DNA of 30,835 nt from assembly GCA_050013715.1 (NCBI GenBank), contig JBEKES010000006.1, positions 1 to 30,835 of the forward strand, written 5' to 3'. Made by a program: the position numbers and the translations under genes. Source of the DNA: Candidatus Micrarchaeaceae archaeon (GTDB lineage: Archaea > Micrarchaeota > Micrarchaeia > Micrarchaeales > Micrarchaeaceae). The notes under the pieces are model-generated. The model did no database searches. It saw nothing but the letters and a program-made list of their open reading frames with translations, and had not been told where the DNA came from. Shown piece by piece: positions 1 to 23,217 of the stretch (positions are counted from its first letter, which is position 1; every line of letters begins with the position of its first letter).

Positions 1-65
1 CAATAAAAACTTACGTCGTAAAATAAATTTACTTATCAGAGGGCCTTTGCACTTCTGGCGTATAA

Positions 66-76
66 CGGCGAGGGCG
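66..76 (+). repeat. Cassette core 1
   Basis: CGGCGAGGGCG; an inverted T-arm-like motif GGGATTTGAACC lies at 186-197. Confidence 0.85.
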
Positions 77-272
77 GTTCATTTTCTTATAGTAAGTTGT
101 GCTAATTTTGATAAATTTTGACAGATTTTGTATAAGAAATCTTACTGCTCACTTCTTCGAGATAACACGTCTAGAAGTAAAGTAAGGGATTTGAACCGGC
201 AATCCAAACTCACATTTTTCATAAAAGTGAAACTATAAATACTATCTAAAACAGAGATAAAATGTTGATAAC

Positions 273-980
273 ATGGTAGAAACGGTTAAAAGGACTGGTA
301 AAGTATTTGAACTTGGAAATCCTTACCTTAATGAAGGTGGCTCTTGTTATTTTTGGCCTAGTGGCAACCGCGAATCTAATGTGGCTCTTTTTAGAAATAA
401 AAAAGATGCTTTAGGGGAGCACCTTGTTACAATGATAAGAGAATATAACAAAAGCTTAGAAACTAGAATGGAAGAGCCACATTATCCTAGATTACAATTA
501 GCAGATGAGAGCATAACAATCCATATAGGTAACGGTGGAAGATGGTTCGGATTGGGTTATGATATTGGTGGTGGTATTATGTCAATGCATAACCTCGATT
601 CATATGTTGATAGAATTCTGGCATTTAATGTAACTTCAGATTGCCTAGAGTTTTTGCACAAAGATATGAAAGCACCTAAAATAATACCTGAAGGAAATGA
701 AATATATAAAATTGAATATCCGTTGCCAGAGGGTTATAGTTTACTACCAATGAATAGTCCATTTTTACTTAATAGAGATTTGCTAAAACGGATTTGTAAT
801 GTATCTAAAATAGGATTTTTGGGCATTAAAGAACAAAAAACCAAACAAGAAGTATTACTTGATGGTGCTAAAGTAAATATAGAAGATGGCATTTGTATTG
901 GAGAGGGCTTTAAAAGATGGGGTGTTCCACGCTCTACATATTTACTGGCAAAATTAGTAGACTCCTGTACTTTTAACTAA
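273..980 (+). CDS. Hypothetical protein (cassette 1 cargo)
   Basis: 235-aa ORF preceded by a variant of the shared cassette promoter (TATAAATACTATCTAAAACAGAG, 234-256). Confidence 0.75.
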   Translation: MVETVKRTGKVFELGNPYLNEGGSCYFWPSGNRESNVALFRNKKDALGEHLVTMIREYNKSLETRMEEPHYPRLQLADESITIHIGNGGRWFGLGYDIGGGIMSMHNLDSYVDRILAFNVTSDCLEFLHKDMKAPKIIPEGNEIYKIEYPLPEGYSLLPMNSPFLLNRDLLKRICNVSKIGFLGIKEQKTKQEVLLDGAKVNIEDGICIGEGFKRWGVPRSTYLLAKLVDSCTFN

Positions 981-1091
981 ATGTCAACGGTTCAAATAAT
1001 TTTGTGTCGTAAATATTATTGGAATAAAGCTTGTTTATTATAGAGATTTTGAATAAGTTTTCATAAAATAATTAAATCTTCTATAAGAAAA

Positions 1092-2194
1092 GGGGTGTCC
1101 GATAAATAGGTAAATTGAAACCCATTTATCAGTATCATTATTTTGACTGGTTCAGAAAACGAATTTTGCGTTTGGAACTTTGAATACATTATGTATATTC
1201 ACTCTTGTAATCAGTTCCTTTTGTCTCATTTCTTTAAGTTTTGAAGAGATTCCTTCACCAAACGTCTTTTTGAAACTCCAAATTTCACTCTCTATGTGCG
1301 GTCGTTTGTTGTAACCTGATTTTTGTTTCCATTTCTTCTGATTTATCATTCTATGTCTATTTTCTGTTTGCATATGCAAAACAGATTCTCTCCCAGGTCC
1401 ATCTCGCAATCCAAATTGTTCTACAACATGTTTCTTACGAATACCTCTACATTTTATCATTGAATTTCTACGTACTGGTATTACCGCCACAATACCATTT
1501 CTCTCCAGATACCTGAATGTTTTTTCAGAGTCAAATGCACCATCTGCCAATAACTTTTCTAATATTCCCAGAAAAGGATCCAACAACCTTTTTACTACTT
1601 TATTATCATGTATGTATTCTTTTGTTTGTACCATGTTCAATATCTGACCTGTTTTGTCATCTATAAAGAAATGCGTCTTTATCCAACTTTTACGCACTCT
1701 GTATCGCTTACCGCACCATTCATTACTACCTGTTTTCTTCAATCCTGTTGAATCTATTATTCCTACTATTTTATCCTTGGTAAAATTAGAGAATAATCTA
1801 AATTTGATCCCAAATTTTTCCATTTTATTAATTCTCCACCATAATGTCCTAAAATCTGGAATTTTTGGTACTTTCAACTTATCCTTTATCATTTCCATAA
1901 ATCCAGTTACCTGTCTATAACCGTATCTCAACATTGATTTTGCGGTAAATCCTAATAAAATCAGATACGGATTGTAACTAAAAGGCCTGCCTCTCTTCTT
2001 TTTGTTGTTTGATAAAAGGACTTCTTCTGCCATCTGCAAAGATTCTTCCGAAATGTACAGGGTAAAATTACCCCTATTTACTAACATCTGGTTATATAAT
2101 TTCCAATTTCTAGGTGTTCTCATTCTGGTCGCCAAAGTCCAGAATACTCCTAAGGTTTTATACCTTAGGGTTTAGTGGAATTATTGGACACCCC
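1092..2194 (-). mobile_element. IS5-family (IS903-like) insertion sequence, 1103 bp
   Basis: Terminal inverted repeats GGGGTGTCCGATAA (1092-1105) and TTATTGGACACCCC (2181-2194), 13/14 match; flanking direct repeat TATAAGAAAA at 1082-1091 and 2195-2204. Confidence 0.92.
1152..2135 (-). CDS. IS5-family DDE transposase
   Basis: N-terminal NWKLYNQMLVNRG (IS903-like); IIDSTG, LADGAFD and Y-x2-R-x3-E-x6-K (YNKRPHIESEIWSFK) DDE motifs. Confidence 0.92.
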   Translation of the reverse strand: MATRMRTPRNWKLYNQMLVNRGNFTLYISEESLQMAEEVLLSNNKKKRGRPFSYNPYLILLGFTAKSMLRYGYRQVTGFMEMIKDKLKVPKIPDFRTLWWRINKMEKFGIKFRLFSNFTKDKIVGIIDSTGLKKTGSNEWCGKRYRVRKSWIKTHFFIDDKTGQILNMVQTKEYIHDNKVVKRLLDPFLGILEKLLADGAFDSEKTFRYLERNGIVAVIPVRRNSMIKCRGIRKKHVVEQFGLRDGPGRESVLHMQTENRHRMINQKKWKQKSGYNKRPHIESEIWSFKKTFGEGISSKLKEMRQKELITRVNIHNVFKVPNAKFVF

Positions 2195-2219
2195 TATAAG
2201 AAAAGTAAGATACATATAA

Positions 2220-2300
2220 GGGCTTCAATCCGCCGGATTGAAGATCGGCGAGGGCGGACTTCGACGTGTCGCAGTCGAAATTAGCCGAGTTCAAATCCCT
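2220..2300 (+). repeat. Cassette junction 2: hairpin + core + tRNA-like arm
   Basis: CTTCAATCC-GCC-GGATTGAAG hairpin; core at 2246-2256; TTCGAC-GTGTCGCA-GTCGAA hairpin; GAGTTCAAATCCC. Confidence 0.88.
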
Positions 2301-2361
2301 TAATTTTTGTAAAAATAAACACATAAATATCTAATAAAACAAAGTAAATTAAGTGATAGAA

Positions 2362-2814
2362 ATGCCAAGAGGAAACTTAATGGTAGTTACGTTGAAGCAA
2401 CATCTATTTCCAAGTGAAATAGAGCTTAGAAGAAACGCAACTTTAGATAAACCTTCAAAGAAAATTCCAGCTACGCTATGGTTAGATAAGCGTGATCATG
2501 ATCCAGAATACATATGGTTGGGTGTACCAACAGGTATTACTTCAGAAGCTTATAATGGCGTAAATAAAGGTAAAAATACAACTTTTGCTTGTCTCGATCG
2601 CAAAGAAGTAATTGCATTAAAAAGAGAATTGGTTTAATTTCCCAGAAAAGAGGAAAAAGGAAGACGTAAGAGATTGGCCATAAATAGAAGAGGACTTAAA
2701 CTTAATGATTTGCGTAGAAAAGAAATAGAGCAACAACAAACAGAAGAATTGAAACTACACCACGAGAGAATAACTCAAACACAGGGAAGAATGAGGGATA
2801 GAATACATTTTTGA
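2362..2814 (+). pseudogene. Hypothetical protein interrupted by an in-frame TAA at 2635-2637
   Basis: ATG 2362 follows the shared promoter/GTGA RBS; the same frame stays open for 58 more coding-like codons (FPRKEEKGRRKRL...DRIHF) to TGA 2812-2814. Confidence 0.55.
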
Positions 2815-2822
2815 GTGAGTAA

Positions 2823-3344
2823 ATGGCAATTCAAACGAAACCAAAAGTACCTATCGATACTCAAAGAGTTGGGAATATTATAGATGATTGGGCAAGAAAA
2901 ACTGGAAATGGCAATCTCTTAGTTCTTGGGGTATTATCTGCTGCAAGATTAAACAATTATTTATATGAATTAGAACATGTAAAAAAACAAATTGTAAAGG
3001 GAGATTTAAACAAGAGAGATATTAAAAACGCATTAAAAATTGGAATTATAAGAATAGGTATGATTCAATCAGATCATATACATCAACTTTCATTATCAGG
3101 AGAAAATGAACTTGTGATATATTTACCAATATTAAGATATTCGGAAGAGTTAAACTCGTATTTCGGAATTACACCACAAGAACTTAGAGAGGTATTGATT
3201 GATGGTGTAGTTGGTATATTAAGATTTGGAGACGCTCGTTCAGCACAAATTATTGCTACGGTTGCAAACTTGAGCAACGAAGAATTAGGTGCTGGATTAA
3301 AGAGGGCAGAGTCTGATAAAACCATCAAGCTTAGAAGTGAGTGA
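2823..3344 (+). CDS. Hypothetical protein (cassette 2, second gene)
   Basis: 173-aa ORF with the leader TTTTGAGTGAGTAAATG, identical to that of ORFs at 3553 and 9111. Confidence 0.75.
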   Translation: MAIQTKPKVPIDTQRVGNIIDDWARKTGNGNLLVLGVLSAARLNNYLYELEHVKKQIVKGDLNKRDIKNALKIGIIRIGMIQSDHIHQLSLSGENELVIYLPILRYSEELNSYFGITPQELREVLIDGVVGILRFGDARSAQIIATVANLSNEELGAGLKRAESDKTIKLRSE

Positions 3345-3402
3345 TACGCTTCTTTCCATAATGAAGTAGTAATGTGTCAAATGACATACAATGCCATACA
3401 AA

Positions 3403-3494
3403 GGGAAGTTGGTATCACGATACCAGTTCTCGGCGAGGGCGGACTTCGACGTCATTTCGACTGTAAGAGGGAGTGATACACGGTTCAATCTCTT
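3403..3494 (+). repeat. Cassette junction 3
   Basis: TGGTAT-CACG-ATACCA hairpin; core at 3431-3441; GGACTTCGACGTC; CGGTTCAATCTC. Confidence 0.85.
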
Positions 3495-3510
3495 ACCTTT
3501 TCGAAAAGGC

Positions 3511-3552
3511 ACATATAAATATCTAATAAAACAGAGTATTTTGAGTGAGTAA
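3511..3552 (+). promoter_or_regulatory. Shared cassette promoter/RBS module (TATA box + GAGTGA)
   Basis: ATATAAATATCTAATAAAACAGAGTATTTTGAGTGAGTAA-ATG; identical at 9071-9113, close variants at 2321-2364, 4815-4857 and 9880-9922. Confidence 0.75.
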
Positions 3553-3732
3553 ATGACAACAAAAAATTATCCATTGGTAAAAGATACGGATTACAAATTA
3601 ACAAATCTTTCACAGTTGTTCGAAGTCCCAAAAACTGAGAATGTGGTTGTTATACATCATAGAGATTCACTTTTTGTACTAAAAAGGATAAGCAGCACTA
3701 TGTTTTGGGAAACCAACGTACTTAGAACTTAA
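3553..3732 (+). CDS. Small hypothetical protein, 59 aa (cassette 3 cargo; not in the ORF track)
   Basis: MTTKNYPLVKDTDYKL...WETNVLRT*, directly after the shared promoter/RBS. Confidence 0.6.
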   Translation: MTTKNYPLVKDTDYKLTNLSQLFEVPKTENVVVIHHRDSLFVLKRISSTMFWETNVLRT

Positions 3733-3846
3733 CAAATTAGTTTTATCTTCATAAAGATTAGCGGAATAAACAGTTTCTTATAGGGAAGTTACAAATATGA
3801 TACTCAAATAATTAAGTTCTATATAAGCTCCATAAGAAATCAATAA

Positions 3847-3990
3847 GGGCTTCAATCCGACGGATTAAATATCGGCGAGGGCGTCTTCCTTTTTGTAAAG
3901 CCCCCACCTAAAGAAATAAGACATGTCATATCGAAGACAGAGAGTTCAAATCCCATACTGGGCGCATGCTATTAGGGTTCAAATCCTAAT
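3847..3990 (+). repeat. Cassette junction 4
   Basis: GGGCTTCAATCCGACGGATTAAATAT then core at 3873-3883; GACATGTCATATCGAAGACAGAGAGTTCAAATCCC; second T-arm-like hairpin ATTAGG-GTTCAAAT-CCTAAT at 3971-3990. Confidence 0.85.
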
Positions 3991-4040
3991 TAAAAGAGTA
4001 AAACTTCAGATATTTAATACCTTAATTCTTAATTTAGATT

Positions 4041-4688
4041 ATGAAATCCAAGATAAAGTCATTTTTAATTTTTAAAAATAGCAAAGTAAGGAAAATTCCT
4101 AAAGAATTCCAATCTGACGATAATCGTAATCCAGAAAGTTTAGTTGCATACTTCTTGAAAGAATTTACTAAAAAAGGAGATACTGTTTTTGACCCGTTTA
4201 CAGGTTTAGGTACAACTTTGATAGTAAGTGAACAGATGGGTAGAATTCCATTTGGTATAGAATTAGATAAAAAGAGGACAAATTATGTTAAATCTCAAAT
4301 AAAAAATAAACAAAATTTAATTAATGGTAATTCAAAAAATTTAAGTTCATATAAATTACCTTTATTTGATTTCTGTTTTACCTCACCATTATACACGCAT
4401 AATAATGGTAAACCTTACAAACGATATTTAAAGAATATATATGAAATTTTTGCTCAGCTAAAAAACCTAATGAAAAAGAATTCTTACTTAGTTATTGAAG
4501 TATCTAACCTAAAAGATAAAGATGTTACGACCCTTGCATGGGATATAGAAAAAGAAGTTTCTAAAGTTCTCCATTTTGAAGGTGAAATAGTTATTGGTTG
4601 GAAAGGAAAAGATAGTTATGACGATGATGGAAGTTATGGCTATGGATACGACCATAGTTACTGTCTTATCTTTAGAAATGTAAAATAA
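4041..4688 (+). CDS. Orphan amino (N4-C/N6-A-type) DNA methyltransferase-like protein
   Basis: SAM-binding motif VFDPFTGLGTT, GIELD, and catalytic-type motif FTSPLY (SPPY variant). Confidence 0.75.
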   Translation: MKSKIKSFLIFKNSKVRKIPKEFQSDDNRNPESLVAYFLKEFTKKGDTVFDPFTGLGTTLIVSEQMGRIPFGIELDKKRTNYVKSQIKNKQNLINGNSKNLSSYKLPLFDFCFTSPLYTHNNGKPYKRYLKNIYEIFAQLKNLMKKNSYLVIEVSNLKDKDVTTLAWDIEKEVSKVLHFEGEIVIGWKGKDSYDDDGSYGYGYDHSYCLIFRNVK

Positions 4689-4748
4689 TTATAAATCCTT
4701 TACCTTTATCTAAGACAAAGAGTAGGTGTTAAACATATGATTAAAGAA

Positions 4749-4803
4749 CGGCGAGGGCGGACTTAGACGTGTCGCAGTCGGAGAACGCAGGCTTCAAAGC
4801 CAT
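4749..4803 (+). repeat. Cassette junction 5
   Basis: Core at 4749-4759, then GACTTAGACGTGTCGCAGTCGG...GGCTTCAAAGCC. Confidence 0.85.
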
Positions 4804-4854
4804 AAAAAAACACAATATAAATATCTAATAAAACAAAATATAATTGTGATAAAA

Positions 4855-5304
4855 ATGTCTGAATATATAAAATCTCAACGTACTGAAAGAACTCAATTAC
4901 CAGTGCATACGAGTTCAGAAACTTTTACAGTAAAAGATCAGAAGTATGTGGTTCTTAGATATCCTGAAAATAAAGGACCAAATTTAAAACAGGCAATAGA
5001 GATAGAAAACAGCATTCCAGGAAAGAAGTTGCTTACAGGACAAGAAGCAAGAGAAATAATAAGCAATGATGAATTAAAAGTCGCATTTGAACATATATTG
5101 AAAATAGGCGAATGGACATATGTTCGTGATTCGGGAACTGAATCGCAGTCTCGAGCCGCTTACCTAATTTTCCTTAGATTCCGTTGTGGTGTGCACTTCG
5201 ACAGTCTGGATAGTATTGCTTCTCCAGTGGTAATTTTAAAAGAAACCAGCAAAGACATCGTCGCACCAAAAGATCCCGAACTGCTTAGAAAAACAGAAGC
5301 ATGA
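4855..5304 (+). CDS. Hypothetical protein (cassette 5 cargo)
   Basis: ORF after the shared promoter; ATG 4855 follows a GTGAT RBS. Confidence 0.75.
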   Translation: MSEYIKSQRTERTQLPVHTSSETFTVKDQKYVVLRYPENKGPNLKQAIEIENSIPGKKLLTGQEAREIISNDELKVAFEHILKIGEWTYVRDSGTESQSRAAYLIFLRFRCGVHFDSLDSIASPVVILKETSKDIVAPKDPELLRKTEA

Positions 5305-5467
5305 GCCCAAAATAATTAATACTAATCTTTACATAACTTTACATAAAAGTATGTAGTTTAGGGATTTGGCCACAAAATTAGCGGAATTAACACGTTTCTT
5401 ATATGAGTGTAGCAGATTTGTTACGAAAATAATTAAGTTTCATATAAGCTCCATAAGAAATTAATAA

Positions 5468-5515
5468 AGGCTTCAATCCGACGAATTGAATATCGGCGAG
5501 GGCGAACTTCGACCC
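5468..5515 (+). repeat. Cassette junction 6
   Basis: GGCTTCAATCCGACGAATTGAATAT, core at 5494-5504, then AACTTCGAC. Confidence 0.85.
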
Positions 5516-5532
5516 ACCGGTGGTAAAAAGCA

Positions 5533-5563
5533 AACAGTTAAATAGTTTAACTGTTCAACTGTT
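5533..5563. promoter_or_regulatory. Probable antitoxin operator
   Basis: Perfect inverted repeat AACAGTTAAA-TAG-TTTAACTGTT (5533-5555) plus an extra AACTGTT half-site just upstream of the antitoxin. Confidence 0.6.
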
Positions 5564-5577
5564 ATACTGTGATTAAT

Positions 5578-5838
5578 ATGGAAGAAGAATTAGTTAAAAT
5601 GTCTGAAAAAGGCCAATTGGTAGTGCCAAGAAAAATACGACAAAAGGAAGGCTTCAAAAACAGTGACAGATTCATTGCAATAGGTGTTAAAGATGGCGTT
5701 CTATTCAAAAAGATAAATATACCGAAGGTCAAGATAGAATTTGAATCGTTATCTAAAGAGATACAAGCCCATTTCAAAAAAGAAGGCATCACAAAAGCAG
5801 ATGTCGCAGAGGCAGTTAAATGGGCAAGAGAAAGATAG
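5578..5838 (+). CDS. AbrB/MazE/SpoVT-family antitoxin (VapB-like)
   Basis: KMSEKGQLVVPRKIR swapped-hairpin motif; overlaps the PIN gene. Confidence 0.88.
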   Translation: MEEELVKMSEKGQLVVPRKIRQKEGFKNSDRFIAIGVKDGVLFKKINIPKVKIEFESLSKEIQAHFKKEGITKADVAEAVKWARER

Positions 5839-6233
5839 TACTTGATACAAACATACTTATCTCAGCTCTTGGCTGGGAAGGTAATCTAAGCAAGATACTG
5901 GATAAAGTTGTGGATGGAGAGCTTGAGTTTTTCATATCTTATGATCAATTCAATGAGTTCTTAAGGGTTATTAACTACCCGAGATTGAAATTTAGCGAAG
6001 AACAAAAGGCAAGATTTGAGGCACTCATATCTAACCTGGCAACGTTTGTAAAAACACAAGATATACTTGACGTAATAAAAGATGATCCTTCGGACAACAT
6101 GATTTTGGAATGTGCTTTAGTTGCGAATGCAGACTATATTGTATCCGGAGACCTAAAGCATGTTCTTCCAATTAAAAAACTTGGGAGAATAAAGATTGTT
6201 ACTGCAAAAGAGTTTCTTAAATTACTGAAATAA
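5820..6233 (+). CDS. PIN-domain toxin (VapC-like)
   Basis: IVLDTNILISAL, DDPSDNMILECA and IVSGDLKH PIN motifs. Confidence 0.9.
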   Translation: MGKRKIVLDTNILISALGWEGNLSKILDKVVDGELEFFISYDQFNEFLRVINYPRLKFSEEQKARFEALISNLATFVKTQDILDVIKDDPSDNMILECALVANADYIVSGDLKHVLPIKKLGRIKIVTAKEFLKLLK

Positions 6234-6271
6234 ATATATATAATATCATTTAATATCAAACAATAGTATCT

Positions 6272-6349
6272 GGGAAGTTTACTTAAAGTCACGCTTCCGG
6301 CGAGGGCACCTGCTAAATTACACGTCTAAGAATTGGGGTTTAGATCCTG
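6272..6349 (+). repeat. Cassette junction 7
   Basis: GGAAG...CTTCC hairpin; core at 6298-6307; TTACACGTCTAAGAATTGGGGTTTAGATCC. Confidence 0.85.
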
Positions 6350-6388
6350 TTTAGAGATGAGAACACTCAAGGGCTAGTAAAGCATAAT

Positions 6389-6814
6389 TTAAACTATCTT
6401 CTTTTCATCCGCTACGAATATCCAGTGCCGATGGAATTTATCATACATCTGCCCGTACATTCCAAAATGCATCTGGTGCATTTCTTGGAACCTATCTTTC
6501 TCTGCCCCAACCGCAAGCTTATCAAATACAGACTTTACCTCTTCATAATTGCCAGTGACAAATATAGCATACATCTCTCCAAGTATGGGTTCATACTGGG
6601 GTGCAGCCATCCAGTCGGTAGCTGATATTTCTATAATGCCACTTTTCAGATACGCATTTATTATCCGATTATGTTTCTCTTTTGGTATCATTTCTTTCAT
6701 GGGCGTGTCGCCAAGCTTTGTCAATCTCAATTCTCCTCCGAAGCATTCGTGGTAGAAGGTCATCGCTTCAGCACAGTTACCGTCAAACAGAAGAAATGGC
6801 GTAGTCTTTAACAT
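6389..6814 (-). CDS. VOC-family (PhnB-like) protein
   Basis: TPFLLFDGNCAEAMTFYHECFGGEL...FGMYGQMYDKFHRHW; GGGTGA RBS before ATG 6814. Confidence 0.88.
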   Translation of the reverse strand: MLKTTPFLLFDGNCAEAMTFYHECFGGELRLTKLGDTPMKEMIPKEKHNRIINAYLKSGIIEISATDWMAAPQYEPILGEMYAIFVTGNYEEVKSVFDKLAVGAEKDRFQEMHQMHFGMYGQMYDKFHRHWIFVADEKKIV

Positions 6815-6880
6815 ATTTTTCACCCTTTCTTATCTAATACATAAATCAAAAGATAATACTTTTGCCCAGTTAAGATTCAG

Positions 6881-6955
6881 CCTTATTTTTTCTTACCCCT
6901 TTACCAAGCACCAAGGGAGAGATGTTATCATAAGGCAAGAAGACCGGCGAGGGCG
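6881..6955 (+). repeat. Cassette junction 8
   Basis: Left arm CCTTTACCAAGCACCAAGGGAGAGATGTTATCATAAGGCAAGAAGAC closely resembles that of junction 11; core at 6945-6955. Confidence 0.85.
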
Positions 6956-6982
6956 TTTCTTATATGTTGCTCCATTTTCATA

Positions 6983-7795
6983 TTATCCACCAATTGCGAT
7001 ATTTCTAAGCAAAGTCGAAATTCTTACTGCAGAAGCTCTTTCTTGACCTAGCTTTCTAGATATTTTCTTGCTAGCCTCTATTAATTTTATAATGCTTTTG
7101 ATCTCTTCTGATCCAACAATCCTCTTGGTACAGACCTCTAAACACCGAATTGCATCTGCTCTTTGTCCAAATTTTATGTAAACATCTGCAAGATCTACCA
7201 AACTTGGTAACGTACTTTCAAATGAACTAGTATTTCCTGGTCTAATCTCCCAGTAATAATTTGCAAGTCCCAAAGCCATTTCTTTATTATCTAGTTCAGT
7301 CCAGATTTTCGCAAGCCTTACTACGGTATCCAAATCATTAGCATCATAAGCTCTATAACCACCTGCAGATCCCCCACCGAAGCCTAGCCAACCACCTCCT
7401 GTTGTATGTCCGAACTCCAGTGTTCTTGCTTCCTTTGCTAAGCTTTCTGCTATACTTTTCTTCCCAACTTTAAGGCAAAGCTCTGCCGCTTTTGCAATAT
7501 GGGAACTCCATTTATGATCCTTATATCCATTTGCGATCTTTTGGGCGCAGTCTTCTGCCTTGCTAACAAGCCCAAGCCCCAAGTATATAGAACCTGCATC
7601 ATAAAGATCGAAGTAATCTCTACTAGCAAGAACATCTGCGCAGAGCTTTGCTCTTTTTCTATCGCCAGTCTTAAGCCATCTATGGCCTGCCTCTGCATAG
7701 TTTCTATTTATATTCAGTTTCAGTTCCTCTATCTGGGCGCTTGTTAGCTTATCTTCCATTCTAATATGTGCTTCTTTTATTGCTTTATTTCTCAT
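6983..7795 (-). CDS. Alpha-helical repeat (TPR-like) hypothetical protein
   Basis: Repeated A-x2-Y/C-L-x-x-G-x4-A helices and a Gly-rich loop; GGTGA RBS. Confidence 0.6.
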   Translation of the reverse strand: MRNKAIKEAHIRMEDKLTSAQIEELKLNINRNYAEAGHRWLKTGDRKRAKLCADVLASRDYFDLYDAGSIYLGLGLVSKAEDCAQKIANGYKDHKWSSHIAKAAELCLKVGKKSIAESLAKEARTLEFGHTTGGGWLGFGGGSAGGYRAYDANDLDTVVRLAKIWTELDNKEMALGLANYYWEIRPGNTSSFESTLPSLVDLADVYIKFGQRADAIRCLEVCTKRIVGSEEIKSIIKLIEASKKISRKLGQERASAVRISTLLRNIAIGG

Positions 7796-7994
7796 GTTCA
7801 TCACCTATTAATTTTAATATAAGTATACCGAGTTCTGTTAGGTCAACAGTTCCGTTCCATTCTAAAAGGCCCTGTTTCTTAAGAATTTGTGCGTTCAGTT
7901 TAAGAGTAGAAAGAGGCACATTGTAATATTTTGATAGATTCCTAAGCAATGCTGTTATATTCTTGTTCCCATCAACACTTGAAAGAATTAGCAA
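7785..7994 (-). CDS. Small winged-helix protein; start uncertain, possibly frameshifted
   Basis: LSKYYNVPLSTLKLNAQILKKQGLL...VDLTELG wHTH pattern. The frame stays open upstream to ~8078 without an ATG, while the RBS-linked ATGs (8077/8074) are out of frame. Confidence 0.55.
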   Translation of the reverse strand: MLILSSVDGNKNITALLRNLSKYYNVPLSTLKLNAQILKKQGLLEWNGTVDLTELGILILKLIGDEHEK

Positions 7995-8206
7995 CTGGTT
8001 TTCATTCAGTGATTTTCTTACGATTGATCCTAAGCCTGCTTTCTGTTTTGCAGATATGTAAATTGGCTTGGCATCATCTCACTTTTGTTTGTAGTATCTT
8101 TACTAATTATATAGTTATTTAAAGCAATTGGACAGTTTTAGCTGACCAAACATGCAGAGAGCCTAGACCAAATTCCTCTGCCTTTACAGAAAACAACAGG
8201 TTTATA

Positions 8207-8243
8207 TACTAGTTAGTACATATATATTACTAATTAGTACATA
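8207..8243. promoter_or_regulatory. Tandem palindromic operator
   Basis: TACTAGTTAGTACATA (8207) and TACTAATTAGTACATA (8228), 21 bp apart, immediately before the gene pair. Confidence 0.6.
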
Positions 8244-8246
8244 AAA

Positions 8247-8534
8247 ATGATTGAAATGGCGAAAATGATTATGGTACAAAGACTCAAGTATGCACCTACA
8301 CTTAATACAGTCATTATGGTAGAAAATGTCATAAAAAATTCTAAAAATTCCGTAATAACTATACCTGAAATAAAAAGAGCACTACCAAAGCAGGTAAACC
8401 ATGCAAAGCTTAAGATAATACTTGAGTATCTTGAAGAGAGTAATAAGATAGCTGTTACCATGAAAGGCATAACTTGGATACATAATACAAACCCTAAATT
8501 AAAAAAGGCTATTGAAAGAGGCATGGAAGTATGA
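8247..8534 (+). CDS. Small wHTH protein, putative antitoxin
   Basis: PTLNTVIMVE...ILEYLEESNKI; overlaps the next gene (ATGA). Confidence 0.6.
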   Translation: MIEMAKMIMVQRLKYAPTLNTVIMVENVIKNSKNSVITIPEIKRALPKQVNHAKLKIILEYLEESNKIAVTMKGITWIHNTNPKLKKAIERGMEV

Positions 8535-8884
8535 AACCTGTACGAGTGATTCTTTCAGAAGATGCAAGTGAAGTCTACAAATACCTTAATAGTAGGGCGT
8601 CAGATTCTAAAGTAGAGAGGAGCATATTGAAATCAGTTAAGAGCAAATTGGAATTGATAAAAGTAAATACACATTATGGTGAACCAATACCAAAACAATT
8701 AATTCCGAACGAATATAAAGTTAAGTATGGGATAACAAACTTATTTCATGTTGAACTATCTAATTTTTGGAGAATGTTATATACATTGACAAATGATGAG
8801 GAAGAAGTAGAAATAATCGCATTTGTACTTGATATTACAGATCACGAAACTTACAATAAGAAGTTTGGATATAAGAGACATTAA
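8531..8884 (+). CDS. RelE/ParE-superfamily-like toxin
   Basis: VILSEDASEVY...NTHYGEPI...NLFHVELSNFWRMLYTL...DHETYNKKFGY; RelE-like layout in a two-gene operon. Confidence 0.6.
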   Translation: MKPVRVILSEDASEVYKYLNSRASDSKVERSILKSVKSKLELIKVNTHYGEPIPKQLIPNEYKVKYGITNLFHVELSNFWRMLYTLTNDEEEVEIIAFVLDITDHETYNKKFGYKRH

Positions 8885-8939
8885 CAAATGCTTATATCTG
8901 ATATCATCTAATAGTATTCGACATCATTTAACATCATAC

Positions 8940-9000
8940 GGGAAGCACTCCTGAAGCTGGGCTTCCGGCGAGGGCGTTACACTGCCGGGTTGAAGCCCTG
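8940..9000 (+). repeat. Cassette junction 9
   Basis: GGAAGC...GCTTCC hairpin; core at 8966-8976; TTACACTGCCGGGTTGAAGCCC. Confidence 0.85.
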
Positions 9001-9110
9001 ATCATAGTCCTAATGGTAAGTCAAAAAATCCAGTTTAAATTCTTGAAAAGGATTTGGACTAAAAAAGAACATATAAATATCTAATAAAACAGAGTATTTT
9101 GAGTGAGTAA

Positions 9111-9737
9111 ATGACTAATCATGATAATTTGTCACGAAGAGCAAAGACAATACATTCAACATTAGACAATAGCAAATTAGTGCTTGGAATATTTACAGTT
9201 TCAGGTGAACAATCAAGGTTGTCAATTCGTATGGGACAAGGACCTAACGGAGCTAGCGGAACTTTTAGTGTTGAAGGAGCAGAATCAATGAACAATTTTC
9301 TCAATAACTTTCTTAGGCAAGGAAGTGAATTTAAATTGATTATCCTATCCGAAAGATTAAGTGAAAGAACAGCAAGACTCATTCAAAATAAAGCAAACTT
9401 GTTAGAATGCTATTTAGATGAAGATATTCTTAGAAATATCAAAACTAGACGTGTATTATTTATAGATTATTGCGATGCACCAAAAGAAGTCGGTTGGTAT
9501 TTTGTAGATAAAAATAATAAAACATTTCAAAGTATTTCTGAAGCTGAGTATAATGAGTTAGCATGGAATGAAAGATTATATGTTTATCCTCAAGCTTCTA
9601 AGGCAATTGAAGAAAAACGCCCATTAGTATTTGGTTATACTTGTACAAGAACTACGTTGCAAAATGGGGTTCTATTTCTTGGAGATAATTTTAATACTGA
9701 TGATGCCGCTCAAGTAGTTTTGAAGTTAAGTAGCTAA
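9111..9737 (+). CDS. Hypothetical protein (cassette 9 cargo)
   Basis: 208-aa ORF after the shared promoter. Confidence 0.75.
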   Translation: MTNHDNLSRRAKTIHSTLDNSKLVLGIFTVSGEQSRLSIRMGQGPNGASGTFSVEGAESMNNFLNNFLRQGSEFKLIILSERLSERTARLIQNKANLLECYLDEDILRNIKTRRVLFIDYCDAPKEVGWYFVDKNNKTFQSISEAEYNELAWNERLYVYPQASKAIEEKRPLVFGYTCTRTTLQNGVLFLGDNFNTDDAAQVVLKLSS

Positions 9738-9786
9738 AAATTAATTATAAAACAGAGTACACTCTTTACATAAAAGTATGTAGTTT

Positions 9787-9866
9787 GGGGCTTTAGCGCA
9801 AAAAGCTAATGCTCGGCGAGGGCGGACTTCAACGTGTCGCAGTCGAAGAAATAAGGCTTCAAAGCT
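9787..9866 (+). repeat. Cassette junction 10
   Basis: GGGC-T-TTAGC...GCTAA-T-GCTC hairpin; core at 9814-9824; GACTTCAACGTGTCGCAGTCGAA...GGCTTCAAAGC. Confidence 0.85.
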
Positions 9867-9919
9867 ATAAAAAAGTACAATATAAATATCTAATAAAACA
9901 GAGTATTTTGAGTGGTATT

Positions 9920-10615
9920 ATGACAACTAAAATAGGGTCGCGGCTAAGTACGGCTGCAAAAGAAAGATTATGTGAAACTTTCGGTAAATATTTGAACAAA
10001 AGAGATCCAGATATGGGTCATACTGCTGCAGATTTTATCATAAATAGTATGCTTGACAGCAAGATATTGCAAAACCAAACTTTAACAAATAAATTTGTAG
10101 AAATTGTTACAAAAAATTATGGATCTTATCCAGAAGCAGCAATGAATTTATCAGTGCCTCTTGATAATGATGTATATAATATGGGAGAAAAAGAATTTGA
10201 TAATTATTTATTTATAATAAGTAGCCCTAACTTTTTGACAGGATTAATATCCTTTGAGAACATGAGCAATGTAATTCATCATTTTTCAGAAAGGATGGCA
10301 TTCAGGGCAGCAGACAAGGCAACAGATGCAAAAGATGAGTTATATGCGGTCCTTGATTCTTTAAAAGACCCAAATGTCATATCATTAGTGCATGGGATTA
10401 TTGGTAGTCCTGCCGAAGATGGGGTTTTAGAAATAATTTCTTATGCTCTTCAATATGGTATTGAACCAACTAAAAAAGTTGGTGAGATATTAACAATTAT
10501 GAAAGACACACCAAGAGCAGTTGAAGCTATACGTAAAATTAGTGATGAATTCGCTAAATACGTTGCTGACGATGTTAAAGCTAAATCAGAAAATATGGGA
10601 TTATCTAGAAAATAA
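9920..10615 (+). CDS. Hypothetical protein, 231 aa (cassette 10)
   Basis: Likely start is ATG 9920 after the shared promoter; the track's 9809 start runs through the junction. Confidence 0.75.
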   Translation: MTTKIGSRLSTAAKERLCETFGKYLNKRDPDMGHTAADFIINSMLDSKILQNQTLTNKFVEIVTKNYGSYPEAAMNLSVPLDNDVYNMGEKEFDNYLFIISSPNFLTGLISFENMSNVIHHFSERMAFRAADKATDAKDELYAVLDSLKDPNVISLVHGIIGSPAEDGVLEIISYALQYGIEPTKKVGEILTIMKDTPRAVEAIRKISDEFAKYVADDVKAKSENMGLSRK

Positions 10616-10625
10616 AGTGATATAA

Positions 10626-10967
10626 ATGCCCACTGTAAATATCTATTATAAAACCAAAAGAGACGGTGCAACTCTAAAACCTGTTATACCAAAGCTAAAG
10701 ACGTACCTAGCCAAGAAACTAACCTGTGGCGAAATTAAGCTAAGGCAAGATGAAATAAGCGTGAGACCCATTAAAGTTGAAGGTAATGGGATGCTTGGTA
10801 GGGTAGAAGTTGATATTGTTGCTCATGAATTTGCTGAAAGAGTAAAGAATCAGGATAAGATATGTTTTGATACTAAGCAATGGCTAGAAAAAGAAGCTAG
10901 ACCAATAGATAATTTCAGAGTCTGGCTTAATCTAGGACAATTAGGACATGATGTACTGCCTACTTAA
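10626..10967 (+). CDS. Hypothetical protein, possibly tautomerase/MIF-like fold
   Basis: N-terminal Pro (MPTVNIYY), beta-alpha-beta pattern, GTGAT RBS. Confidence 0.55.
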   Translation: MPTVNIYYKTKRDGATLKPVIPKLKTYLAKKLTCGEIKLRQDEISVRPIKVEGNGMLGRVEVDIVAHEFAERVKNQDKICFDTKQWLEKEARPIDNFRVWLNLGQLGHDVLPT

Positions 10968-10970
10968 TTT

Positions 10971-11077
10971 CCTTGTACCTTTACTAAGTAGCAAGGGAGA
11001 AATGTTATCGTAACGATTGAAGACCGGCGAGGGCAACTGAGACGTTACACATCTAGGAATTGGGGTTAAAAGCCCTC
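10971..11077 (+). repeat. Cassette junction 11
   Basis: Left arm like junction 8; core at 11025-11034; right arm TTACACATCTAGGAATTGGGGTTAAAAGCCC like junction 7. Confidence 0.85.
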
Positions 11078-11229
11078 ATTTTCTAGAGATAAAATCGATT
11101 GTAATCTAAAAATAGCTTTATATATTTAAAACTCCATAATTGAATAGTGATTGAATAGTCTTAATAAGCAGAAATATTGAAAATGAACATGAAAGAGCAG
11201 TAGTTTGGGGTGTTAACCCTGCATTATGC

Positions 11230-11649
11230 ATGCCAAAAGTTAGTGGAAGGCAAAAATTATTAAATGATAATTTACGAATAGCTGCAATTAATGGTAATAT
11301 TGAAGGCGTAAAAGTAGCCATTAAGGATGGTGCAAATGTGAATGCAGTAGACCCAAATAATGGAACAGCTTTGGTAGATGCTGCATCCCGAAATTATGTT
11401 GAAATAGTAAATGTACTTTTGGATAATAAGGCTGATGTTAATGTGGCTACTTACCCTAATCGGATGACTGCTTTGATGTACGCATCAAATAATGGATATA
11501 CTGAAATTGTTAGGGCACTACTTGATAAAAATGCTGATGTTGAACGAAGAAACTGGGATGGCAATAATGCAATAAATTTTGCAAGAGAAAATAGCCATGG
11601 CAAAATCTTAACTTTGTTAGAATCGCATCTACTTAGAAAAACTAATTAA
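11230..11649 (+). CDS. Ankyrin-repeat protein
   Basis: About 4 repeats: AAINGNIEGVK..GANVN, TALVDAASRNYVEIV..ADVN, TALMYASNNGYTEIVRALL. Confidence 0.93.
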   Translation: MPKVSGRQKLLNDNLRIAAINGNIEGVKVAIKDGANVNAVDPNNGTALVDAASRNYVEIVNVLLDNKADVNVATYPNRMTALMYASNNGYTEIVRALLDKNADVERRNWDGNNAINFARENSHGKILTLLESHLLRKTN

Positions 11650-11677
11650 GTACAAATCATAAACCATTATCATATTG

Positions 11678-11724
11678 CGGGCTTTTTCTTTTTATGGCGT
11701 AAATGAAAAAGCTCGGCGAGGGCG
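11678..11724 (+). repeat. Terminal cassette junction 12 (attR-like)
   Basis: CGGGCTTTTTC...GAAAAAGCTCG hairpin running into the core at 11714-11724; no tRNA-like arm follows. Confidence 0.85.
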
Positions 11725-11776
11725 TGTCTCAAAAAGGTTTTTCATCTACATATATAAAAAATATTTGAGTGAAAAT

Positions 11777-12397
11777 TTAGTTGCATGCAACTCCGAAATT
11801 GTAACTAGCGTAGGTCGCGTTAGAAACATTCAAGGATTGTCCTAAATTAGATATCTGCAACTGGCCCTCCAAAGTATACATGCTAGAAAAATTCTTCCCA
11901 TAAGTTCCATTCAAAAATAGAGGATTTTGAAACCCTACCGGGAAGTACTTGCATATGAAAGCTATGCTTGTTATGTTGCTTGTCTGAATAGGTACATAGG
12001 TGAACCTGCTGCCACGCCCATTAAAATTTGGTATAACTATAAAAGTACTGGTTTGATTTTGATTAGGTATGGTAGTGCTTGAAGATGTGGTGCTAACAGA
12101 AGTGGTTATGGAAGTAGTAGTTCTAAAGATGGTTGTAGAAATTGTGGTTGTTGGTATTGTAGTTCTACGTGTTGTAGTTCTTGGTATTGTACTCGTGCCC
12201 CTTACGGTGCTTATGAAAGTCGTAGTTGTTGTGCTTGAGGTTGTTTTTGCTGAAGTAGTTGCAACTGTTAAAGAGGTTATTTCGCTATTAATGGGCAGAT
12301 CCATAATACGAAACAAAACAAGAGTTACTATTACAGCTAACACTATTACCAAGATGGCTATGATGTATTTGTAAATATTGTGCTTCTTCTTTTTCAT
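11777..12397 (-). CDS. Membrane-anchored Thr/Ser-rich surface protein
   Basis: Basic N-terminus, TM helix, long Thr-rich linker, C-terminal domain with NxS/T sequons. Confidence 0.8.
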   Translation of the reverse strand: MKKKKHNIYKYIIAILVIVLAVIVTLVLFRIMDLPINSEITSLTVATTSAKTTSSTTTTTFISTVRGTSTIPRTTTRRTTIPTTTISTTIFRTTTSITTSVSTTSSSTTIPNQNQTSTFIVIPNFNGRGSRFTYVPIQTSNITSIAFICKYFPVGFQNPLFLNGTYGKNFSSMYTLEGQLQISNLGQSLNVSNATYASYNFGVACN

Positions 12398-12555
12398 TAT
12401 ATCAGTTTATCAATACGGATTATTAAGGTTGATAAAAATAATTGCGTAAAATGTAATTTCTTGATGCGATTTTGACTTTATAAAGTGAAATATACTTCTA
12501 TTTAATGTAGTTTAATTTAGTAAAGGTTTAAATACTCTACTTGAGCATATATACT

Positions 12556-13164
12556 ATGGCAAAGCAAGAAACGACAACCACTAAAACAACCATAAACAAC
12601 AGCAGAAGGAATCCGGTAACAACAACCACAACTACTAAAACGACAACCATAAATAAAAGGAGGAGGACACCAGCGCCTAAACCTGAAAAGAAAGGTAATG
12701 GGGGCACTATAGCAGGTATACTTATTATTTTAATATTATTGGCTGTGTTAGCTTACTTTTTCCTGAATCCGCCATTAACTTTACAACAGCAGCAAAGCCA
12801 ATTCGCTAATCAACTTTCCATGCTGCAGAATAATAATCAGAATCTTACGCTTTTTTACCTTGCCAATGCGGCAAATTACAATCTGAATGTAAACAAGAGC
12901 TGGTCGATACAGGTTACTGACAAGAACTATGCAAACGTTACTATTGGACAGCTCACAATTAGCTGGAACGGGCAATATAAGAACCTCTCCATAGAGAACG
13001 GTATAGTAAATACAGACATATCACCTACTTATGCAGTGACACTACCGCATTCTGAATTTATGTCCTTCTCAAATGCTGCAATTGCAAGGAACACAGCGGC
13101 TGCATTTGCTGATTATACTACCTACTATCTAACTGGAAAATTAAATTATGTAAGGATAAAATAA
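12556..13164 (+). CDS. Single-TM protein with a Thr/Arg-rich N-terminus
   Basis: Repeated TTTTKTTIN, then a TM helix and an Asn-rich extracellular domain. Confidence 0.75.
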   Translation: MAKQETTTTKTTINNSRRNPVTTTTTTKTTTINKRRRTPAPKPEKKGNGGTIAGILIILILLAVLAYFFLNPPLTLQQQQSQFANQLSMLQNNNQNLTLFYLANAANYNLNVNKSWSIQVTDKNYANVTIGQLTISWNGQYKNLSIENGIVNTDISPTYAVTLPHSEFMSFSNAAIARNTAAAFADYTTYYLTGKLNYVRIK

Positions 13165-14069: not shown

Positions 14070-15194
14070 TTATTTCAATATTGCATCCATGCCTAGAAAT
14101 CTTCCGTATCTTTCTGCTTCTTCTCTGATTCCTTTCATGTTATCTTTGTTCAATTTTACGTAATGCTTTAGTGCAACTACAACCTTGTCCTTCACGATCT
14201 TCCTGCTCCATGTGCCTACTACTTCTCCATTAACAACTATCACAGGGACGAATATTCCGTTGCTGTAGATGATTGCAGGTTTTTTATAATCATTTATCGT
14301 ATTTTTCAATGTTCTCTGAAGTTCAGGATTGGAAAGCATTGCGCTTCTATCGGCATAGCTTACGAGATATTCGTCAAAAGCAGGCAAAAGATGCACCGAA
14401 TTATCATTACTACGCAGTTTTGGAATATGCTTTGGCATGTAGTATGTAATGCCATCTATGCTTTCTTCGGCAAGCTTTGATTTCATGTGTTCTATGCCAA
14501 TCCTTGCATCGCTGACCTTTAAACCTGACCACCATACATAATCCTTGATTGTTGCTGGGCCATGGCTTGAAAAGTCCCTAAGGGCAAGCTCGGCGTTCGC
14601 CTGCTCCTGAGAAAGCTCGTTCCTCCTTGTTATGTGCTCGTCCAGCAGCACAAACGTCTGCTCCCTGCCTTCATATGGTCCGAAGCATATGAGGCCGTCC
14701 CAGGCCGCCCTATAGAGCATATGGTAGCCAAGGTTGGATCCCAGCCCATTATTGGACTTGATTCCTGCTTTCTCAAGAACCTTATACATTTCTTTCCGTG
14801 TGAGATGCTTTCCTCCCTTCAGCGCATTGTAGAACATTGTCTTTGTCTTCTCCACAACTTTGTCGCTCAGCCCCAGGTGTCTGTCCCTTACCATTGCCGT
14901 GCTTAGAAGCCTAGGTGCAAAGAGCTTCAGCATCCAGTGTATATCGGAGGAAGTAGCAAAATGCAGGGTGCCCCTCATGAGCCATGTCCTTGAGATTTTC
15001 CTTTTGGCTATCGCATTTTCAATGTCCTTAATTGTGGTGCCGTCTTTGCATCTTAGCCCCATGGCCCACAGCGAAGCGGGGTAATCCTGAGCCTGCATTG
15101 CTCCCATGGAATTCAACACCTCTTCAGGTGTATTTAGTCCATTGCCGATGTGCTGAGATGAAAGCCTATAATTAATAATATCTGAGATATCCAT
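14070..15194 (-). CDS. AlkZ/YcaQ-family (HTH_42) DNA glycosylase-like protein
   Basis: AMQAQD (QxQ), RTWLMRGTLH, HGPATIKDYVWWSGL, LLPAFDEYLVSYADR. Confidence 0.88.
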   Translation of the reverse strand: MDISDIINYRLSSQHIGNGLNTPEEVLNSMGAMQAQDYPASLWAMGLRCKDGTTIKDIENAIAKRKISRTWLMRGTLHFATSSDIHWMLKLFAPRLLSTAMVRDRHLGLSDKVVEKTKTMFYNALKGGKHLTRKEMYKVLEKAGIKSNNGLGSNLGYHMLYRAAWDGLICFGPYEGREQTFVLLDEHITRRNELSQEQANAELALRDFSSHGPATIKDYVWWSGLKVSDARIGIEHMKSKLAEESIDGITYYMPKHIPKLRSNDNSVHLLPAFDEYLVSYADRSAMLSNPELQRTLKNTINDYKKPAIIYSNGIFVPVIVVNGEVVGTWSRKIVKDKVVVALKHYVKLNKDNMKGIREEAERYGRFLGMDAILK

Positions 15195-17479: not shown

Positions 17480-17863
17480 ATGGATACGAATAGTATAATA
17501 AAAGCTGGAATATTGGGAGGAGTGATAATAATAGTAATAGAGCTTCTGGTGGGCATTGCAGCCCCTAGCATAGCCTATGCATTCAGCATAATAGCGTTGC
17601 TGGTTGGGGGATTCATAGCCGGCTGGATGGTAAAGGGAAAGACTACAGATGGTATCGTTGCTGGAGGGGCAGCAGGAATTGTGTATGGGATTCTCGGATT
17701 ATTGATACTCTATCCATTGCTATCCTCTAGATTTAGGCATGCTCCAGCTGTTTACGTTGTTGAAATAATCGTAAGCATCGTAATTGCTGCAATAGGTGGA
17801 TTAATCGGCAAATATCTTGCATCTAATAAAAAGTCAAGCAATTCTCAACGCAGAAAAAAATAG
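17480..17863 (+). CDS. Four-TM Gly-rich membrane protein (DUF5518-like)
   Basis: LLVGGFIAGW...DGIVAGGAAG...AIGGLIG. Confidence 0.7.
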   Translation: MDTNSIIKAGILGGVIIIVIELLVGIAAPSIAYAFSIIALLVGGFIAGWMVKGKTTDGIVAGGAAGIVYGILGLLILYPLLSSRFRHAPAVYVVEIIVSIVIAAIGGLIGKYLASNKKSSNSQRRKK

Positions 17864-18360: not shown

Positions 18361-18642
18361 TTACTTTGTACTGGAAAGCGCATCCTGAAGCGCATTCGCC
18401 AGCTTTATTACCTTTCTGCCTTTTTCTGTCGTATTATATGCTATTATCCTTCTTCCTGTTTTCGATTTATACACCACCGCCTCTACTGCTTTTACCTCGA
18501 TAAGCTCATGAAGCCTTTTGGCTACGGTTGCAGAGCTCAATCTCCTTTTCTTGATTGTTATCTTTGTAAAATCGTTAAAGTTTTTGGGTTCGCTGCTGTC
18601 AGCCATCTCTAATATTTCCAAGTACCCTCTTATCATTACCAT
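18361..18642 (-). CDS. Winged-helix (HxlR-like) regulator, paralog 1
   Basis: FNDF...LSSATVAKRLHEL...AYNTTEKGRKV. Confidence 0.8.
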   Translation of the reverse strand: MVMIRGYLEILEMADSSEPKNFNDFTKITIKKRRLSSATVAKRLHELIEVKAVEAVVYKSKTGRRIIAYNTTEKGRKVIKLANALQDALSSTK

Positions 18643-18684
18643 GGTAATAAATTGAAACGATACATATATAAAGTAAGCAGGTTT

Positions 18685-23192: not shown

Positions 23193-23217
23193 CTATTTAT
23201 ATCAATATGGTGCTTAC

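Follow-up and report, generated by a model that had tools for sequence, protein, structure and literature searches.

A tandem array of integrase-less mini-islands behind tRNA-Arg(GCG) in a Micrarchaeaceae archaeon, probably stacked by a zinc-ribbon tyrosine integrase

CIMEs and tandem accretion at the 3′ ends of genes were reportedly described by Pavlovic in 2004 and by Bellanger in 2011. In the consulted part of PMC5704250, CIMEs are integrase-less units, decayed ICEs or IMEs, which retain attL/attR; at a single target they form tandem stacks with autonomous elements or lie stacked behind them. The Dehalococcoides ssrA-specific islands, 15 of which are without an integration module, are likewise tandem, and direct repeats of the 3′ end of their target flank them; the portion of PMC3146451 available to us describes tmRNA as the single target, a repeat of 20 bp and the serine recombinase DsiB. 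Tycheposons, according to the accessible part of 10.1101/2020.12.28.424599, use tRNA-targeted tyrosine integrases, and newcomers push older elements inward and leave partial tRNAs; each carries its own integrase, att sites of ~40 nt and kilobases of cargo. Type II archaeal integrases (intact-gene, pNOB8/XerA-related) combine SAM and PF00589 domains with tRNA targets and short att sites, and thaumarchaeal integrated elements are known with att sites down to 8 bp and tandem site re-use (PMC8371274 and PMC6563490, both seen in part). Integron arrays and CALINs, including archaeal ones, are rows of short ORFs whose cargo includes toxin-antitoxin systems and ORFans, with addition presumed to be polar, as given in the accessible part of 10.1101/2022.02.06.479319.

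The locus analysed here resembles CIME accretion and the Dehalococcoides islands, but at single-gene scale and with arms common to different tRNA cores. As far as these partly accessible sources describe the known systems, it differs from CIMEs in its setting, an archaeal genome below 1 Mb in which 12 tRNAs carry single-gene units, up to 13 per tRNA, whose cores are exact and which share a promoter module. It differs from the Dehalococcoides islands in its many tRNAs, 10–11-bp core, presumed tyrosine integrase and much smaller units, and from integrons in tRNA-end joints, many cassettes with their own promoter and recombination presumably on double-stranded cores. Its putative helper differs from the described type II integrases in a C-terminal zinc ribbon, positions 63–73 of many tRNAs as target and single-gene integrase-less passengers.

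In the window, the whole stretch of 30,835 nt analysed, 12 exact plus-strand copies of a 10-mer were located (starts at 66, 2246, 3431, 3873, 4749, 5494, 6298, 6945, 8966, 9814, 11025 and 11714). The recomputed spacings were identical to those of the first-pass annotation, including the first, for which the IS ends bore out 2180 − 1113 = 1067. Its claim that the rest of the window is free of the repeat also held, since no extra copy was found in the whole window even with one mismatch allowed; 0.16 copies were expected by chance and the highest number in 100 shuffles was 2. The 10-mer is positions 63–72 of tRNA-Arg(GCG), which lies upstream of the window start on contig C29 (C-numbers denote contigs of the source genome G000, other G- and L-numbers its relatives). 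C29 overlaps the window start by 84 nt with 2 mismatches, and L159 bridges the join with 99.995% identity over 20,034 bp. When C29 is joined to the window, tRNA-Arg(GCG) and 13 cassettes stand in a row (Table 1). The array thus does not start inside the window, as had been supposed, because two further copies lie on C29, one being the tRNA itself; the anchor could not be seen from the window, since it lies outside it. All 13 array cores are exact and each joint repeats tRNA positions 63–72(73). At position 73, the window copies at 6298 and 11025 have A, and the other 10 of the 12 have the G of the tRNA. Tandem integration is known to leave an att scar of this kind, a duplicated tRNA 3′ end. 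The first-pass proposal that small units without an integrase accrete site-specifically in an archaeon was supported, and the accompanying idea of a novel type of cassette site was not: the core is a tRNA 3′ end, and every tRNA array has its own.

Table 1. Features of the tRNA-Arg(GCG) array (window coordinates unless a contig is named).
Feature	Position	Strand	Description
tRNA-Arg(GCG)	C29:10318-10393		upstream of window start; tRNA call
Cassette A	C29, behind tRNA-Arg(GCG)		536 bp
Cassette B	mostly C29, right end 1..65	+	801 bp; one 231-aa membrane ORF
Core	66..75	+	tRNA-Arg positions 63-72; first of 12 window copies
Cassette C	76..2245	+	235-aa ORFan 273-980; later IS insertion
IS5-family element	1092..2194	-	terminal inverted repeats; NF033579 190 bits, cut-off 140
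Cassette D	2256..3430	+	T-loop mimic and shared TATA/RBS module in left arm; ORFs 2353-2637, 2674-2814, 2823-3344
Cassette E	3441..3872	+	432 bp; sole ORF of 59 aa (3553-3732), behind shared promoter module
Cassette F	3883..4748	+	DNA methyltransferase-like gene 4041-4688
Cassette G	4759..5493	+	ORFan 4846-5304, shared promoter module in front
Cassette H	5504..6297	+	AbrB/MazE-like antitoxin 5569-5838; PIN toxin 5820-6233
Cassette I	6308..6944	-	VOC/glyoxalase-like gene 6389-6823
Cassette J	6955..8965	mixed	TPR-like ORF 6983-7804 (-); short ORF 7785-7994 (-); TA pair (+)
Cassette J TA pair	8247-8534, 8531-8884	+	putative antitoxin; ParE-like toxin
Cassette K	8976..9813	+	ORFan 9111-9737, shared promoter module in front
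Cassette L	9824..11024	+	ORFans 9920-10615, 10626-10967
Cassette M	11035..11713	+	most distal; ankyrin-repeat gene 11230-11649
Conserved flank gene	12541..13164	+	downstream of array

The units of this array measure 0.4–2.2 kb. The cargo named at first pass (methyltransferase, AbrB/MazE with PIN, ParE-like pair, VOC and ankyrin) was supported, several scores lying under curated cut-offs. Intact genes, claimed for every interval, were not present in all: cassette E has its 59-aa ORF only, and the first ORF region of cassette D is split over two frames. The IS5-family element is a passenger with its own 10-bp target duplication (1082–1091 / 2195–2204). Cassette M is the oldest unit, provided that new ones enter at the tRNA. 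No integration or transfer genes were found in the tRNA-Arg units, whose flanks are copies of the tRNA 3′ end (attL/attR), and in an Rfam search of positions 1–13,000 nothing reached gathering scores.

Comparison with relatives revealed that cargo differs at the same tRNA, as the first-pass annotation had suggested examining. Matches to the array were found at 29 loci, 6 in a core-and-arm context and 23 without one, the latter including several IS-end or stand-alone toxin-antitoxin matches. A homologue of the VOC gene (78% identical) occupies a tRNA-Asn cassette of G069, and homologues of the cassette J pair occur in a tRNA-Ala cassette of G059 and behind a tRNA-Asn core of G006. The right arm of cassette F is 88.5% identical over 61 nt, in register, with an arm on C31 which ends at a tRNA-Asp core. 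The VOC homologue of L119 was rejected as a cassette, as it sits upstream of tRNA-Asp and outside any cassette. L159 was identical across the 9 joints covered, and no exact empty site for the tRNA-Arg(GCG) locus was found in relatives. No excision joint or circle was seen in 4 public runs, which consist of contigs only at low depth and so cannot show absence; loose ends at 3431 and 3872 in these runs were paralogous joints on C29.

Based on exact copies of tRNA positions 63–72 within 20 kb downstream, 12 of the 31 detected tRNA ends of G000 were followed by copies of their own positions 63–72(73), which delimit 34 units of 0.35–3.7 kb. Unit sizes cluster at a single gene (17/34 ≤794 bp), and the register of the copies was sharp (offset 0, 34; +1, 32; −1, 15; +2, 13). 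For these 31 tRNA ends, copies upstream of the tRNA and on the opposite strand both numbered 0. A 6-nt 5′ extension was present at 3 of the 34 joints, and cores at some joints of other arrays were degenerate. Integrase was absent from 55 of 56 core-bounded units below 4 kb.

The first-pass description of the units as integrase-less extended to the whole of G000 (92.9% complete), where no tyrosine or serine recombinase was found. PF00589 gave 0 matches, a custom HMM and tblastn for the integrase were negative, and the search detected neither integrase remnants or fragments, including int(N)/int(C) of the split type, nor resolvase or large serine recombinase families; Cas1 (PF01867) and IS110 transposase (PF02371) each gave 0. 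A weak tblastn match upstream of tRNA-Leu on C2 was an unrelated housekeeping ORF. The genome also contains one IS200/605 TnpA and one reverse transcriptase with a template/variable-repeat layout, for neither of which a link to the arrays was seen.

In relatives, an intact tyrosine integrase of ~400 aa with SAM, a PF00589 catalytic domain and a C-terminal zinc ribbon was found in 31 of 128 other genomes of the host's family. Alignment A1 shows no variation in its catalytic residues (R, K, H-x-x-R and Y), and the gene, located 50–95 bp behind many different tRNAs, stays intact after integration; by intact gene, SAM plus PF00589 and catalytic residues, the proposed helper belongs with the type II archaeal integrases. 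Its elements measure 4–15 kb and are closed by the same 10–11-bp duplication, as seen in 21/21 distinct elements with a located far end, with 0–2 additional matching bases 5′ of the core. These comprised 13/13, 4/4 (one overlapping with the 13) and 5/5 read from other locus comparisons; among 80 integrase loci, 40 had no detected adjoining tRNA end and 27 of the other 40 no far end inside the fetched DNA. The 32 integrase left arms adjoin 24 distinct cores. Small cassettes stand in tandem with integrase elements in L022, L151, L152 and L285, and not in G000. In viral contigs, the junction pattern and a search with a single integrase as query both gave 0 matches, and an alignment-based search returned relatives at 23–39% identity. 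The consulted passages and literature searches yielded no zinc-ribbon family tied to tRNA positions 63–73 that has integrase-less passengers of single-gene size; the supplementary element tables of PMC6563490 and PMC8371274 might list it.

Integrase elements and small cassettes have the same arm architecture. In many tRNA-Arg units the cargo ATG is preceded by an opening arm in which a T-loop-like word is combined with a TATA box and a ribosome-binding site, and this module precedes unrelated genes at a similar distance from the core. Of the array's 14 left arms, 7 contain T-loop-like words (control 11%), as do 19 of the 32 arms of integrase elements. The right arms of the L022 integrase element and of a 270-bp integrase-less cassette in L157 are 78–80% identical, and G010 contains an empty 111-bp unit with both arms of cassette B. 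Arms of identical type were found next to different cores, in register, in 16 right-arm and 5 left-arm pairs of 1953. Arm pairing was poor: right arms were similar in 40 unit pairs, and in only 5 of these did the left arms resemble each other as well. The best values between integrase-element and window-cassette arms were 0.47–0.53 for right arms (background 99.9th percentile 0.55) and 0.56 for left arms; none of the integrase elements was a close match to a window arm. A left-arm pattern run over 248 genomes gave 8 matches, about equal to the reversed control. No common hairpin or fold was found at the array joints.

Taken together, the array probably consists of 13 integrase-less mini-islands stacked serially at the tRNA-Arg(GCG) 3′ end by the zinc-ribbon integrase of a transient element. 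The helper, supplied by a transiently resident element, would join a circular cassette (right arm–core–left arm) to the tRNA end, restoring the tRNA and displacing older units away from it, and could cut out one unit, or a block of several, between any two cores. It may, more tentatively, read the conserved T-arm and need only matching cores, so that arms would switch tRNA upon core exchange; any overlap sequence serves the mv4 integrase as long as the two partners agree in it, according to the available part of 10.1101/2023.11.06.565760. Recombination at similar arms or promoter modules could add to the reshuffling of cargo and arms. Counting against this helper are the 10-bp swapped core, longer than the usual 7-bp overlap, the failure to find an integrase in G000 or an arm-matching integrase element, and the poor left/right pairing. 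A broader reading, in which Micrarchaeota possess a dedicated integron-like system on tRNA genes, is possible but doubtful. An arm-plus-promoter shell, its empty form being the 111-bp unit, would capture single genes, a lent T-arm-reading zinc-ribbon integrase would insert, excise and reorder them, and 10-bp core exchange would re-address them.

Fossil accretion is unlikely. It attributes the joints to the same integrase and takes the units as immobile deletion remnants of larger islands, as CIMEs are defined in the consulted part of PMC5704250, with shared arms due to common ancestry and homologous recombination. The failure to find an integrase in the genome, the unseen polymorphism, the decayed ORFs and IS inside units, the degenerate cores elsewhere and the inconsistent arm pairing agree with it, but remnants would fit poorly with 13/13 exact cores, single-gene sizes, one promoter module before unrelated genes and cargo homologues as small units at other tRNAs. 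Much less probable is a staggered-cutting transposase or casposase that targets the T-arm of tRNAs, leaves target-site duplications of 10–11 bp and adds units in a polar, CRISPR-like manner. The fixed duplication length and the arms abutting different cores in register favour it. Against it, no terminal inverted repeats were found in 63 units (own ends average 0.36, unrelated ends 0.37), G000 yielded neither Cas1 nor IS110 transposase, a tyrosine recombinase is encoded by those autonomous elements that have this duplication, and two L150 joints have the same mismatched core and the same arms. Weaker still as builders are the split SSV-like tyrosine integrases of ~300 aa at tRNAs of relatives, a different family that the CGACGACAA-type left-arm motif also adjoins. 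Their left flanks have this CGACGACAA motif and the T-loop mimic in common with several G000 arms, and the 6-nt extensions point the same way, but the three located far ends (L060, L065 and L147) duplicate the T-arm or more, not 10–11 bp, and G000 yielded no fragments of them. An atypical integron (CALIN) with divergent attC, suggested by the cargo profile and mostly co-oriented single genes, is hardly credible and largely refuted, as neither IntI, attC nor attI was found, PF00589 had no match in G000, the joints lack an attC-like site or common hairpin, and the repeat is tRNA-specific. The absence of attC claimed at first pass was supported by a crude regular-expression scan. Its sole site, a palindrome and so scored on either strand, lies within the ORF of the IS and falls in the range of the shuffles (mean 0.76, maximum 4), and none was returned at the joints.

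Stacking of such mini-islands would give tiny DPANN genomes without a resident recombinase a route to keep dozens of exchangeable single-gene modules, here toxin-antitoxin pairs, a methyltransferase and ORFans, and linking the arrays with one particular integrase family opens the mechanism to testing. If the family needs just the T-arm and a matching 10–11-bp core, it shows natural target switching by integrases and is a candidate core-programmable integration tool. Short-repeat arrays of this type escape attC-based integron searches. Downstream of the array, the conserved flank gene was also located 4.9 kb behind tRNA-Arg(GCG) in L163, L164 and L025, and in L165 it follows a different tRNA-Arg gene at a distance of ~110 bp.

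All 12 copies of the 10-mer counted by the first-pass annotation were recovered in the window as exact plus-strand matches, against 0.16 expected. The spacings it gave between copies were reproduced exactly, and so was its correction of the first interval, where 1113 bp were due to an IS5-family passenger. The whole source genome G000 contained 14 exact copies, the 12 of the window and two on contig C29, and the first copy on C29 was the 3' end of a tRNA-Arg(GCG) gene (positions 63-72, standard numbering assigned from the cloverleaf in this analysis). The terminal 84 nt of C29 matched the window start with 2 mismatches, and the join was bridged by metagenome contig L159 at 99.995% identity over 20,034 bp; this contig, which may come from the same population as the source, supported the join only and not the biology. 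Based on the C29 overlap and L159, the locus starts with conserved genes, which are followed by the tRNA, a run of 13 cassettes measuring 432-2170 bp, and the flank. In loci L163, L164 and L025 of relatives, the flank gene at 12541 was separated from the same upstream genes by 4.9 kb of other DNA, and further relatives carried different content or different cassettes behind the same tRNA. No exact empty site for this locus was found among the relatives compared. The array in G000 is a real feature.

The joints at window 6308 and 11035 were the sole two with A, not G, at position 73. Both preceded one left-arm family that also followed A73 tRNA cores elsewhere, and cassettes may carry position 73 along with them. 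The same core was present in two tRNA-Arg isoacceptor genes of some relatives (L024, L025, L026 and L027 in genomes G008 and G007), so either gene could serve one cassette type.

The tRNA ends in G000 were located by a T-arm plus acceptor-stem detector (n = 31), and at 12 of the 31 the tRNA's own positions 63-72 were copied exactly downstream, with 34 units of 352-3686 bp. The register was sharply defined: copies numbered 34 at offset 0, 32 at +1, 15 at -1 and 13 at +2, and the same scan detected none upstream of tRNA ends and none on the opposite strand. In 27 of the 34 copies, the identity reached 0-1 base further in the 5' direction. A few additional joints had one to three mismatches. Arrays were present too in genomes G007, G010, G069 and G004 and at locus L157. 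In the Arg-core array of L134, no tRNA was detected within the fetched 20 kb. At L150, both copies of a 160-bp direct repeat (91%; 14558-14717 and 17482-17638) had the same mismatched tRNA-Thr core at their centre, and the repeat was located behind an integrase element.

Searches of G000 (92.9% complete) found no tyrosine or serine recombinase, no Cas1 and no IS110 transposase. The tRNA-linked tyrosine integrases of relatives fell into two families. In the short family (~300 aa), the reading frames start within the tRNA gene and long duplications were left at L060, L065 and L147; its members resembled SSV-type split integrases and occurred at many tRNAs. The other family (~400 aa, C-terminal zinc ribbon) had an intact gene starting 50-95 bp behind the core, and was detected in 31 of 128 other genomes of the host family and behind 24 different cores. 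In a wider zinc-ribbon set a tRNA end lay directly upstream at 40 of 80 loci, and all 13 of these 40 with the far end in range had 0-2 extra bases. Together with further elements from the other loci compared, the array's duplication signature was found in 21 of 21 distinct zinc-ribbon elements whose far end was located. By this signature the joints were shown, at the level of sequence, to be att scars of the zinc-ribbon integrase family. Following established integration chemistry, every insertion would rebuild the tRNA and shift older units outward. An element that subsequently left would have lent the integrase. Small integrase-less units lay behind L022, L151, L152 and L285. A 270-bp unit had a right arm 78-80% identical to that of L022; the window cassettes' own arms had no close match among the integrase elements compared. 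No excision joints were found in four public runs, represented by contigs only and at low depth.

A CGAC-type motif, a T-loop-like word and a TATA/RBS module were frequent in left arms. The T-loop-like word was found with at least 8 of 11 matches in 7 of 14 left arms versus 11% in the control, and the TATA/RBS module gave 14 genome hits, 10 within tRNA arrays, each preceding an unrelated ORF. Integrase arms (L174-L203) had T-loop-like words at +9-11 and +20-22, and window arms, e.g. 2256-2300, had them at +11, +28-31 and +40; with a spacing of about one helical turn, they may be phased binding sites.

Arm families spanned different tRNAs. The right arm ahead of window 4749 matched an arm ending at a tRNA-Asp core, in register, at 88.5% over 61 nt, and 16 right-arm and 5 left-arm pairs of the 1953 in a 63-unit set were similar despite different cores (the set includes L023 from unpublished genome G003, used for no other claim). 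Co-variation of the two arms was only partial, as 5 of 40 right-similar pairs were also left-similar. For similar arms to occur at different cores, core exchange would be needed, in a model that includes strand segregation. The mv4 integrase accepts any overlap provided both partners match (10.1101/2023.11.06.565760), and integration at secondary sites is named as one way in which specificity can switch (PMC8371274). A transposase that duplicates its target would account for core exchange more simply, but for this reading both inverted repeats and an enzyme are missing. The array is not an integron: IntI and attC were both searched for and neither was found. The units had no terminal inverted repeats, and no hairpin was common to the joints.

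The G000 array works like CIME accretion (PMC5704250), Dehalococcoides ssrA islands (PMC3146451) and tycheposon islands (10.1101/2020.12.28.424599), and tandem site re-use and short att are already known in archaea (PMC6563490). The parts covered of PMC5861418, PMC4158269 and 10.1101/2022.02.06.479319 gave no closer match, and the literature searched described neither arrays of single genes at tRNAs in Micrarchaeota nor the link to this integrase family. New here are its scale, the large number of tRNAs involved, a named helper family and the arms common to different cores.

Earlier cargo annotations broadly held, except that intact genes did not fill every interval: one had only a 59-aa ORF and another a split ORF region. 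Units at tRNA-Ala and tRNA-Asn of other genomes contained genes homologous to the ParE-like pair and to the VOC gene, and 23 of 29 loci matching the array were without core-and-arm unit context.

Features in the window and at loci of relatives
Feature	Location	Context
IS5-family element	window 1092-2194	inside a cassette; 10-bp target duplication
Thr-rich ORF, membrane-anchored-looking	window 11777-12397	directly after last core
Thr-rich ORF, membrane-anchored-looking	window 12541-13164	conserved flank gene
Small HTH-type gene + upstream region	window 18361-18771 (-), 23070-23199, 24391-24818 (+)	two inverted copies; upstream region thrice
Gene-less unit, 111 bp	L134 (G010:C3)	Arg-core array; both arms of cassette B
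~300-aa tyrosine integrase loci	L045, L049, L058-L063, L078, L079, L147	

The end of the IS5-family element matched several other genomes of the family. The HTH-type gene, with a homologue ~3.3 kb behind tRNA-Arg in L163/L164, is possibly, together with its upstream region, another mobile module. Elsewhere in G000, a reverse transcriptase (C25:219-1487) had a ~100-bp repeat upstream of it, with two 81-87% copies at C42:7710-7810 and 8333-8433, which is the layout of a diversity-generating retroelement.
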